This document shows positions 15,048 to 15,586 of a DNA stretch of 64,000 nt, piece by piece. Position numbers and translations under genes: made by a program. Numbering within the stretch: position 1 is the stretch's first letter; each line of letters starts with the position of its first letter. The stretch spans positions 46,113,437 through 46,177,436 of the forward strand of contig NC_087064.1 of assembly GCF_963678635.1 (NCBI RefSeq), given 5' to 3'. The notes beneath the pieces are model-generated. The model saw only the letters and a program-made list of their open reading frames with translations. It had not been told where the DNA came from and did not search any database. The stretch is from Symsagittifera roscoffensis (lineage: Eukaryota).

Positions 15048-15074
15048 TCTTCGTGACTTCGGGATGTATACAGG

Positions 15075-15165
15075 TATGTGTTAACCAGCTCAAGAATTAC
15101 CTTACCAGCTCAAGAATTACCTTACCAGCTCAAGAATTACCTTACCGACTCAAGTATTACCCAAC
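15075..15165. repeat. 23-bp tandem repeat x4 in the pol-ORF3 spacer of copy 1
   Basis: accagctcaagaattaccttacc x3 plus a variant. Copy 3 has an analogous array at 56951-57050 (acttcttgagtttgactaggt x4). Confidence 0.8.
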
Positions 15166-15586
15166 TCAAGAATTCTCTCGAAATGTTCCCTTGCAAATAC
15201 TTGTCGTAAGTGCCAATTATCGCGAGTTCAATCAAGGTTTCTCTCTCTGTTTCTCGCTTGAGTATAGTTGGATTTTCAACTTTGTTTTTCAAACTTGATC
15301 TGAAAACAGAAAGCATATTGAAACTTGACATGTCATGTTCCTAACCTAGAGACCCCCCTTTTACCAGTATGGTTAAAATCTTATCATTTTCGTATCACTT
15401 AAAACAATTCAATTGGAATTCCCTTAAAAGCATGCAGATTCATTTTATGTTTTAGCACCGTTAACTCGTTTTAAAATTTAATTGTCATGCCAATCATATC
15501 TTAAGATCCCTTTACCTGCGCCGCACCCCAGTACCTAACTCAAGACTCCTCCCTCACACCCGACTCGATACCCCCATGTACCCGAC

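Follow-up and report, generated by a model that had tools for sequence, protein, structure and literature searches.

The third open reading frame (ORF3) of long terminal repeat (LTR) retrotransposons is typically expressed from a spliced message (PMC5408684). In the Vesta elements of bdelloid rotifers this frame encodes a GDSL esterase (PMC5408684), and in Cer1 of C. elegans a TTTCAG acceptor has been verified for the CERV frame (PMC10309623). Giant LTR retrotransposons with very large accessory reading frames are poorly understood, and the way in which their extra genes are expressed has usually been guessed. One such element, here called el1, occupies positions 4857-27506 on the minus strand of a stretch of 64,000 nucleotides from Symsagittifera roscoffensis (assembly GCF_963678635.1, contig NC_087064.1, forward-strand positions 46,113,437 to 46,177,436; this whole stretch is the window, and all coordinates count from its first letter). 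The spacer between its pol and its ORF3 holds a short tandem array, which a sequence-only reading of the window had proposed as an internal promoter or processing signal for ORF3. The comparisons reported here indicate that an mRNA of its own, either processed or started internally, almost certainly exists for ORF3, and that the array is probably a family-specific tuning element for ORF3 expression and not the main signal.

Like a Vesta element, el1 is an LTR retrotransposon with an SGNH/GDSL-type ORF3 downstream of pol that is regarded as a separate spliced unit; unlike Vesta, el1 is 22.65 kb long with an ORF3 roughly ten times longer, and a search of the Vesta paper for a tandem repeat or a spacer gave nothing (PMC5408684). 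With retroviral and errantivirus env genes and with Cer1 CERV, el1 shares a TTTCAG-type acceptor sequence shortly upstream of the reading frame and a leader without upstream ATGs. It differs from them in that its splicing is predicted only, in that ORF3 encodes a protein of ~2,900 amino acids (aa) containing an SGNH hydrolase instead of an envelope or CERV protein, and in that the el1 family has a tandem array between acceptor and ATG.

A further comparison is offered by human immunodeficiency virus type 1 (HIV-1), where exon 5 is made up of acceptor A5, the GAR enhancer, donor D4 and the vpu/env start, and where U1 bound at an unused donor supports both acceptor use and env mRNA stability. 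The likeness lies in the succession of an acceptor, a short non-coding exon, a 5'-splice-site sequence and a start codon a few tens of nucleotides further on. In the el1 family, however, the donor-like sequence is present 3-6 times over and is linked with a CTYRAG hexamer, and U1 binding is putative. Already known, then, are the expression of an extra post-pol frame from a spliced message (PMC5408684, PMC10309623), GDSL-type ORF3 products, and repeated cis motifs near LTRs and env. What is new is an array of a multi-copy motif, specific to the lineage, that lies inside the ATG-free leader of ORF3 and is coupled to a hexamer that pervades the element. Sequence comparison alone thereby gives a testable map, with an acceptor-like site, an ATG-free leader starting exactly there, and an accessory repeat module.

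The Spacer between pol and ORF3

The el1-family sample comprises ten copies: el1 itself, a decayed relative in the window called el3, and the loci L001-L007 and L009 (L008 is the L007 locus in a second assembly). The family of el2, a sister element in the window, was extended with four members from public contigs (L010-L013). The 13 fetched loci lie in the ENA assemblies ERZ25071366 and ERZ25878734.

The el1 spacer measures 539 nt, in agreement with the gap of 0.5 kb previously assigned to it, and runs from the gag-pol stop TGA (15587-15589, -; last codons ..TAC TTG AGC ATC GCC TGA, kept in all copies) to the ORF3 ATG at 15047 (-); in el3 it measures 447 nt. Within it, a pyrimidine tract with CAG followed by AT, CTTTCTGTTTTCAG (15300-15313, -), is a candidate 3' splice site. 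The motif TTTTYAG|AT is kept in 13 of 15 aligned copies, i.e., in 8 of 10 of the el1 family, where el3 and L005 are degenerate, and in 5 of 5 of the el2 family; the counterpart in el2, CTTGTTTTTTAG|ATC (30933-30944, -), is placed 92 nt before the el2 ORF3 ATG (30840). It fits a 3' splice site of the TTTTCAG|R type, with a CTAAA/TTAAT branch-like element ~20 nt upstream. This T-run/YAG|AT motif and GGTGCTAAAA are the only parts of the spacer that are also conserved in the el2 family.

The distribution of ATGs changes at this motif. In 13 elements, ATGs were counted on both sides of it and compared with the expectation from base composition. From the motif to the ORF3 ATG there are 2 ATGs versus 44.4 expected, while from the pol stop to the motif there are 140 versus 102.5 expected, so that depletion is confined to the downstream side. 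The ATG-poor stretch is 170-280 nt long and is the most variable part of the spacer; in el1 it covers 252 nt (15048-15299, -; 0 ATGs, 5.3 expected) and would be the 5' untranslated region (UTR) of the ORF3 mRNA. It ends at an ORF3 ATG in RnnATGG context in 10 of 10 aligned copies (aagaATGg in el1). As far as can be judged from aligned sequences, the ATG pattern marks out a scanned 5' UTR with its start, or its junction, at the motif. The motif is taken as a candidate 3' splice site, an initiator being less likely. Splicing is preferred over an internal start because the conserved T-run with YAG suits an acceptor, and because the upstream A/T-rich box stands too near to be a TATA box. The earlier expectation of a spliced or internally initiated ORF3 transcript thus holds in general, given the ATG counts, the conserved T-run with YAG|AT and the RnnATGG context.

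The 2.1-kb gag leader (24364-26504, -) is also poor in ATGs, with 1 versus ~47 expected, which fits a leader exon shared between messages, as in retroviral env mRNAs. This leader has arrays of its own, one of 13-14 bp x26 of GGTCTTGGGACA (24725-25076) and one of 70 bp x2.6 (25968-26148), and an acceptor-like TTTTATTTTTAG|AA occurs 58 nt before the gag ATG (24363).

If ORF3 were translated from unspliced genomic RNA, the array would be part of an internal ribosome entry site (IRES) or of a termination-reinitiation signal. Short modules near a start codon can act as IRES modules, as the 9-nt Gtx element does. Such a mechanism is nevertheless barely credible here: in el1, 539 nt with 9 ATGs separate the pol stop from ORF3, the sharp ATG-free boundary at the acceptor-like motif would be left unexplained, and complementarity of the units to 18S ribosomal RNA (UUCUUGA/UCAAGAA) would be lost in arrays of the CTCAAG type. 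Moreover, the leader shows no unusual structure (folding z=+0.73 versus shuffles), as expected for a scanned leader. No Rfam family was found at the gathering threshold or at E<=1 in the whole window or in the spacer, and no conserved spacer structure emerged, RNAalifold giving only -6 kcal/mol with 3 covarying pairs over 693 columns. IRES and export-element structures were set aside, since covariation does not support them and the leader folds no better than shuffles. Pairing of CUUGAG at the end of pol or in the array with CUCAAG elsewhere was likewise discarded, since whole subfamilies hold only one of the two forms.

The Tandem Array

The arrays that had been noted in "copy 1" (el1) and "copy 3" (el3) are confirmed by Tandem Repeats Finder, which places them at 15084-15161 in el1 (period 20, 3.9 copies, 94% matches, score 135) and at 56946-57040 in el3 (period 26, 3.7 copies, 85% matches, score 155). 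The unit of about 23 bp ascribed to both is not a single period but the mean of the two real ones, 20 and 26 bp. The el1 unit reads ACCAGCTCAAGAATTACCTT on the plus strand and AAGGTAATTCTTGAGCTGGT on the sense strand, the el3 unit is AAGGTACTTCTTGAGTTTGACTAGGT, and on the sense strand both arrays read GGTAWTTCTTGAG..GG. The units are thus related, as had been seen, but their apparent opposite orientation arises only from el1 lying on the minus and el3 on the plus strand; relative to the element the orientation is the same. The el1 array, here called A2, covers 15083-15175 (-) and has five CTTGAG cores and three perfect 20-mers GGTAAGGTAATTCTTGAGCT, ending 35 nt before the ORF3 ATG; the homologous el3 array (56946-57040, +; a 26-bp unit x3.7) has four CTTGAG cores and ends 29 nt before the ATG at 57070.

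In 150 nt of sequence, ~0.15 CTYRAG hits are expected at random and ~0.75 at the element's own raised density. That the array is more than chance is clear because eight further family members all carry 3-5 units at the same place. By alignment count it is found in all ten el1-family copies, with 3-5 units, a period of 15-26 nt, and an end ~26-46 nt before the ORF3 ATG. Depending on the lineage, the core is CTTGAG or CTCAAG, and CTCGAG and CTTAAG occur as intermediate forms; the aligned last units never differ in GGTA, in CT..AG or in the T that comes next, but they do differ in their flanks. Copy number differs among close relatives, being 5 in el1 and 3 in L002 and L004, so that nature provides an allelic series for the dosage of a cis element.

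In the el2 family (five aligned copies) no A2-type array precedes ORF3. Since this family keeps the acceptor-like motif and a homologous ORF3 without it, the array is not the basic expression signal, and it appears from the alignments to be an accessory, lineage-specific module. Its place inside the ATG-free leader, ~125-215 nt downstream of the candidate junction, furthermore implies that it is transcribed into the ORF3 message and does not lie upstream of the transcript. On both grounds the proposal that the array is itself the promoter or processing signal of ORF3 is not supported.

A composite motif CTYRAG-N2-3-GGTA, as found in A2, recurs right after the pol stop in a mini-array, A1 (15531-15586, -), where the alignments show 2-5 units (C)TYRAG-TYRGGTA between G-rich runs, with expansions in L003 and L005. 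A related cluster of CTTGAG and G-runs follows the ORF3 stop.

Is the array, then, more than slippage-prone, ATG-free filler in which only insertions containing an ATG are selected against? Tandem repeats are common in non-coding parts of LTR retrotransposons, long arrays occur in other leader regions of el1 (24725-25076, 25968-26148), copy number and period vary between close relatives, and the el2 family does without. A shared core could follow from the descent of all arrays from one ancestral unit, combined with homogenization. That the array is a neutral by-product is nevertheless doubtful. It is kept in 10 of 10 copies that span 62-98% identity in the ORF3 N-terminal protein, its position relative to the ATG is fixed, and at least five distinct unit architectures exist in which GGTA..CT..AG..T stays invariant while the flanks drift. 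A mere by-product would also not be expected to share its composite motif with the sequences past the pol stop and past the ORF3 stop.

A Model for ORF3 Expression

In the model that is tentatively put forward here, the ORF3 RNA would be joined at the motif at 15313-15300, most likely by splicing, in cis from the leader or in trans if the host uses a spliced leader. The 170-280 nt of ATG-free sequence would be the 5' UTR scanned by ribosomes until they reach the first ATG in a strong RnnATGG context. Inside this leader the array would represent a fast-turnover expansion of a 13-nt composite, CTYRAG-N2-3-GGTA(AG), each unit of which joins the element's hallmark hexamer to a sequence resembling a 5' splice site, G|GTAAG or G|GTAAT. 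On the RNA, the units could act as multiple landing sites for the U1 small nuclear ribonucleoprotein or for enhancer factors, define a short non-coding exon past the acceptor, and so raise both acceptor use and the stability of the ORF3 message. Such an exon-definition and stabilizing module, proposed by analogy with HIV-1, is our best guess for the array; the splicing step, the binding of U1 and any dosage effect of copy number are inferred. Taken jointly, a spliced ORF3 mRNA and an array working as an RNA-level leader module fall somewhat short of an even chance.

The distance from acceptor to array, ~125-215 nt, is that of an ordinary internal exon. A2 is also the densest cluster of 5'-splice-site-like GGTAAG/GGTAAT in el1: of 45 sites in 22.6 kb that score >=7 bits as a 5' splice site, it supplies 6, all within 50 nt.

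Several points weigh against this model. A conserved leader donor was not identified, and R-U5-PBS, the stretch from the LTR to the primer binding site (PBS), carries ATGs; candidate donors in el1 are those at 25769, 25165 and 24545 and GAG|GTAAGG in the LTR at 26969. All homologues come from two unannotated, metagenome-style ENA genomic assemblies. The el2 family expresses a homologous ORF3 without an array, which makes the array in principle dispensable, and some units lack GT altogether (L004 TTGGATAAT; L001 TTGATCATA). Copy number differs between close relatives, as neutral slippage predicts. Finally, CTTGAG and CTCAAG, which are reverse complements, interchange, and this is easier to explain for a site in double-stranded DNA; three copies of TTCTNRAGTG also stand upstream of the TATA-like box in the LTR.

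The last two points lead to the main alternative, at the level of DNA, in which the units are sites for a host transcription factor and form the homotypic enhancer cluster of an internal spacer promoter, the same factor also driving the LTR. The start would then be the Inr (initiator)-like TCAGAT/TTAGAT. As TCAGATT and TTAGATC fit the consensus YYANWYY, a transcription start at the motif predicts an ATG-free zone equally well. The CTYRAG class is self-complementary, and CTTGAG, CTCAAG, CTCGAG and CTAGAG interchange at homologous sites in arrays and LTRs. Each 884-bp LTR has 6 CTTGAG versus 0.8 expected, and the three TTCTNRAGTG sites are found within ~90 bp upstream of the TATA-like TTTTATAA. 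A reversed CCAAT (GATTGG) is among the invariant upstream blocks of the spacer, and CTYRAGTG matches what we take to be an NK2-homeodomain motif.

Sireviruses lend this alternative a precedent, with palindromic repeats upstream of the LTR TATA and 5' of ENV (PMC2829016). As there, the el1 motif is repeated and conserved across families while its surroundings vary, and it is clustered upstream of the LTR TATA (three sites) and 5' of the extra reading frame (3-5 units). Sireviruses belong to the plant Ty1/copia elements and have a CGG-CCG signature as well as CpG islands, whereas el1 is of the Ty3/gypsy type with a CTYRAG core. In el1 the cluster lies in a transcribed, ATG-free leader, and the hexamer pervades the coding sequence. 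Palindromy of the Sirevirus type is not found either, since only CTCGAG and CTTAAG are palindromic, the dominant CTTGAG and CTCAAG are not, and CGG-CCG is missing. A second precedent is the internal promoter of foamy virus, which drives the accessory genes lying downstream and shares its activator sites with the LTR. Compared with it, the el1 sequence, with its Inr-like TCAGAT and an A/T-rich box at -15 to -23, fits an acceptor better than a core promoter.

The A/T-rich element lies at about -15 to -23 of the putative Inr and not at -31 to -24, and the T-run with YAG is needed by a 3' splice site, not by an initiator. The array would have to work from downstream of the start site, the invariant GGTA of its units is missing at the LTR sites, and the hexamer enrichment in coding regions is strand-biased, with CTTGAG 70 versus CTCAAG 32 and CTAGAG 30 versus CTCTAG 4. 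An enhancer cluster is therefore regarded as possible, but unlikely. Heat-shock-element and STAT-like readings of TTCTTGAG were rejected, as their pentamer registers fail in CTCAAG-type units.

A Hexamer That Pervades the Element

The spliced-message model assigns to each array unit a hexamer that is by no means confined to the arrays. In el1, CTYRAG occurs 118 times versus ~22 expected. When the coding sequences of el1 and L001 are compared, on the sense strand, with synonymous-codon shuffles, CTTGAG comes out at the top of all 4,096 hexamers (70 versus 11.1 +/- 3.0, z=19.6), followed by CTCAAG (z=7.9), CTAGAG (7.1) and CTCGAG (5.0). This corresponds to a spacing of ~1 per 340-400 nt, six-fold over the synonymous-codon expectation inside gag-pol and ORF3. 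The excess in coding sequence (6170-23581, -) is also present in L001 and L002, where the hexamer mostly reads xxC TTG AGx. No extended flanks were seen at the coding CTTGAG sites.

Codon usage is ruled out as the cause by the synonymous-codon shuffles. In an order-3 Markov model CTTGAG is the first or second hexamer in el1 and el3, and its excess is absent from el2 and the flanks, which rules out a host-wide bias. In ORF3, 8 of 17 hexamer sites are common to copies that are 76% identical, versus 3.3 expected, so that density is kept despite turnover. These observations suggest an element-wide motif whose densest clusters are the arrays. Along its whole sense strand the element could even carry CTTGAG as a recognition code specific to the family, read by a host or element-encoded factor, possibly the ORF3 protein itself; this we consider distinctly unlikely. 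If it were true, the code would serve export, packaging or protection of an unusually long RNA, and the arrays before ORF3, past both stops, in the leader and in U3 would be high-density landing pads for the factor. An element-wide hexamer excess at synonymous sites, if selected, would be an unusual dispersed recognition motif in a eukaryotic retroelement.

The hexamer might also bear on replication. The polypurine tract (PPT) of every copy, CTYGAGTCCGGGGAGTA|TGT, begins with it, and purine runs follow the A1 units. From this one might propose that the units are PPT-like, or homology elements for plus-strand priming or template switching, and that the spacer is a recombination joint at which ORF3 is swapped. 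Exact copies of the PPT core are repeated in pol, and in L001 sequence identity to el1 switches inside the spacer. Yet the GGGGAG run is missing from the A2 units, where GGTAAG follows in its place, the genuine internal PPT copies are located elsewhere, and one mosaic element is no proof of a hotspot, all of which makes a role in replication very unlikely. That the array is an exact PPT copy is ruled out, since exact core copies occur in pol and not in the spacer.

The internal PPT copies are of interest in themselves. The core GTCCGGGGAG(T), found directly next to the 3' LTR in every copy, recurs inside pol at 18582-18598, 18540 and 16199 in el1 (-), and at 34533, 34449, 34407, 34365 and 31919 in el2 (-). 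In 8 of 9 loci a second copy of the exact 13-mer GAGTCCGGGGAGT is found at the RNase H/integrase junction (in L005 the internal copy is the only one, and L006 has none). The internal copies probably serve as central PPTs, from which the plus strand of a very long element is primed internally.

Other Elements of the Spacer, ORF3 and the 3' UTR

Many invariant blocks indicate, on the basis of the alignments, that the spacer is under constraint. A 5'-splice-site-like nonamer, CAG|GTAAAG (15510-15518, -), scores 7.8 bits; its CAGG is invariant in 10 of 10 copies and CAGGT in 9 of 10 (el3 has CAGGC). The conserved non-coding blocks GATTGGCATGACAATT and GGTGCTAAAAC..ATGAATCTGCATGCT (15429-15495, -) hold two (U)GCAUG motifs, and further invariant blocks are GATTGGCATGACAAT and a G-run.

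The first segment of el1 ORF3 (13968-15047, -) encodes 359 aa. In relatives ORF3 runs on into an SGNH/GDSL-hydrolase domain and ~2,500 further residues. In el1 a stop at 13970 splits the frame, which reopens at 13702, and the remainder (13702-6170, -) is interrupted by one frame change and one TAG; relatives are continuous into the SGNH domain. Near the split (13600-14100, -) are two strong donor-like sites, cag|GTGAGC (14090) and aag|GTGAGC (13603). The break may be a frameshift mutation or a small intron. Searches returned hundreds of close ORF3 homologues, all from ENA genomic assemblies, and no named or distant homologue among the 63 matches of one search or the best 120 of further searches. 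The ORF3 N-termini of the el1 and el2 families are 37% identical.

Past the ORF3 stop, the 3' UTR of el1 (5741-6169, -) ends in the polypurine tract CTCGAGTCCGGGGAGTA abutting the LTR. It repeats the opening module of the spacer, with CTTGAG x3 and G-runs right after the stop, GCATGACAATT and AAATTTTAAATGATTGG. This gives the impression that ORF3 was placed into duplicated 3'-UTR sequence, or is bordered by it. The mosaic L001 (L001 5500-12800 versus window 19000-12000) is 90-98% identical to el1 in pol and ~75% in ORF3, with the switch inside the pol-ORF3 spacer as mentioned, which suggests modular exchange of ORF3 by recombination in the spacer.

Organization of the Window

Self-comparison together with scans for reading frames and Pfam domains shows retroelements nested within the window. 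El1 is a complete Ty3/gypsy-type element of 22,650 bp that was inserted in an LTR of el2, and self-BLAST shows the corresponding nested A+B / B+C / A+C match pattern around the two. The 884-bp LTRs of el1 (4857-5740 and 26623-27506) are 99.66% identical, and el1 is a young copy. They are direct LTRs of the TG..CA type with termini TGTGCC...GTTACA; their 5' half is variable and their 3' half highly conserved (26623-27506, -; also in L001-L009), and past the TATA-like box come a conserved GAG|GTAAGG and, ~75 nt further, AATAAA.

The PBS TGGCGCTCCTGGGTG (26598-26612, -) is found 10 nt past the LTR and is common to el1 and el2 (el2: 38600-38640, -). It resembles what is presumably the complement of the 3' end of tRNA-Asn. 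At the other end the PPT ..GAGTCCGGGGAGTA adjoins the 3' LTR. A single frame (23581-15589, -) encodes, according to Pfam, zf-CCHC, aspartic protease, RVT_1, RNase H and integrase in this order, with a weak dUTPase-like signal between protease and reverse transcriptase (RT), a further point of resemblance to Vesta. With LTRs, PBS, PPT and the order gag(CCHC)-protease-RT-RNase H-integrase, el1 is a Ty3/gypsy (Metaviridae-type) element.

Premature stops in el1 at 20072-20074, 18521-18523 and 8780-8782 (-) are all TAG where relatives have TGG. A variant genetic code is ruled out, since relatives have TGG at 3 of 3 sites and the gag-pol of L001 is intact with 2,544 aa. Among 25 substitutions private to el1 in 5.9 kb of pol, 14 are G>A, in GA and GG contexts, 3 are C>T and 2 are A>G; this G>A excess in a young element is an APOBEC-like editing signature.

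The internal part of the sister element el2 covers 27907-38646 (-). El3 (~45831 to the window end, +) is an older, rearranged and decayed relative. It contains tandem duplications of 2.7 kb (47886-50560 / 50556-53267, +; 93.7% identity) and a second internal duplication of 0.55 kb (60571-61123 / 63446-63998, +; 93%), and the start of its ORF3 is frameshifted, as in a decayed copy.

The window also holds a non-LTR retrotransposon with endonuclease and RT and separate reading frames for a GDSL/SGNH esterase and a PHD finger (3253-3855, +; 40259-42901, +; 44571-45722, -). These separate frames resemble the esterase-type ORF1 proteins of long interspersed nuclear elements (LINEs) and suggest that the host is a metazoan, and the hydrolase fold in both the LINE-like frames and the ORF3 of el1 and el2 possibly reflects domain sharing between retroelement classes.
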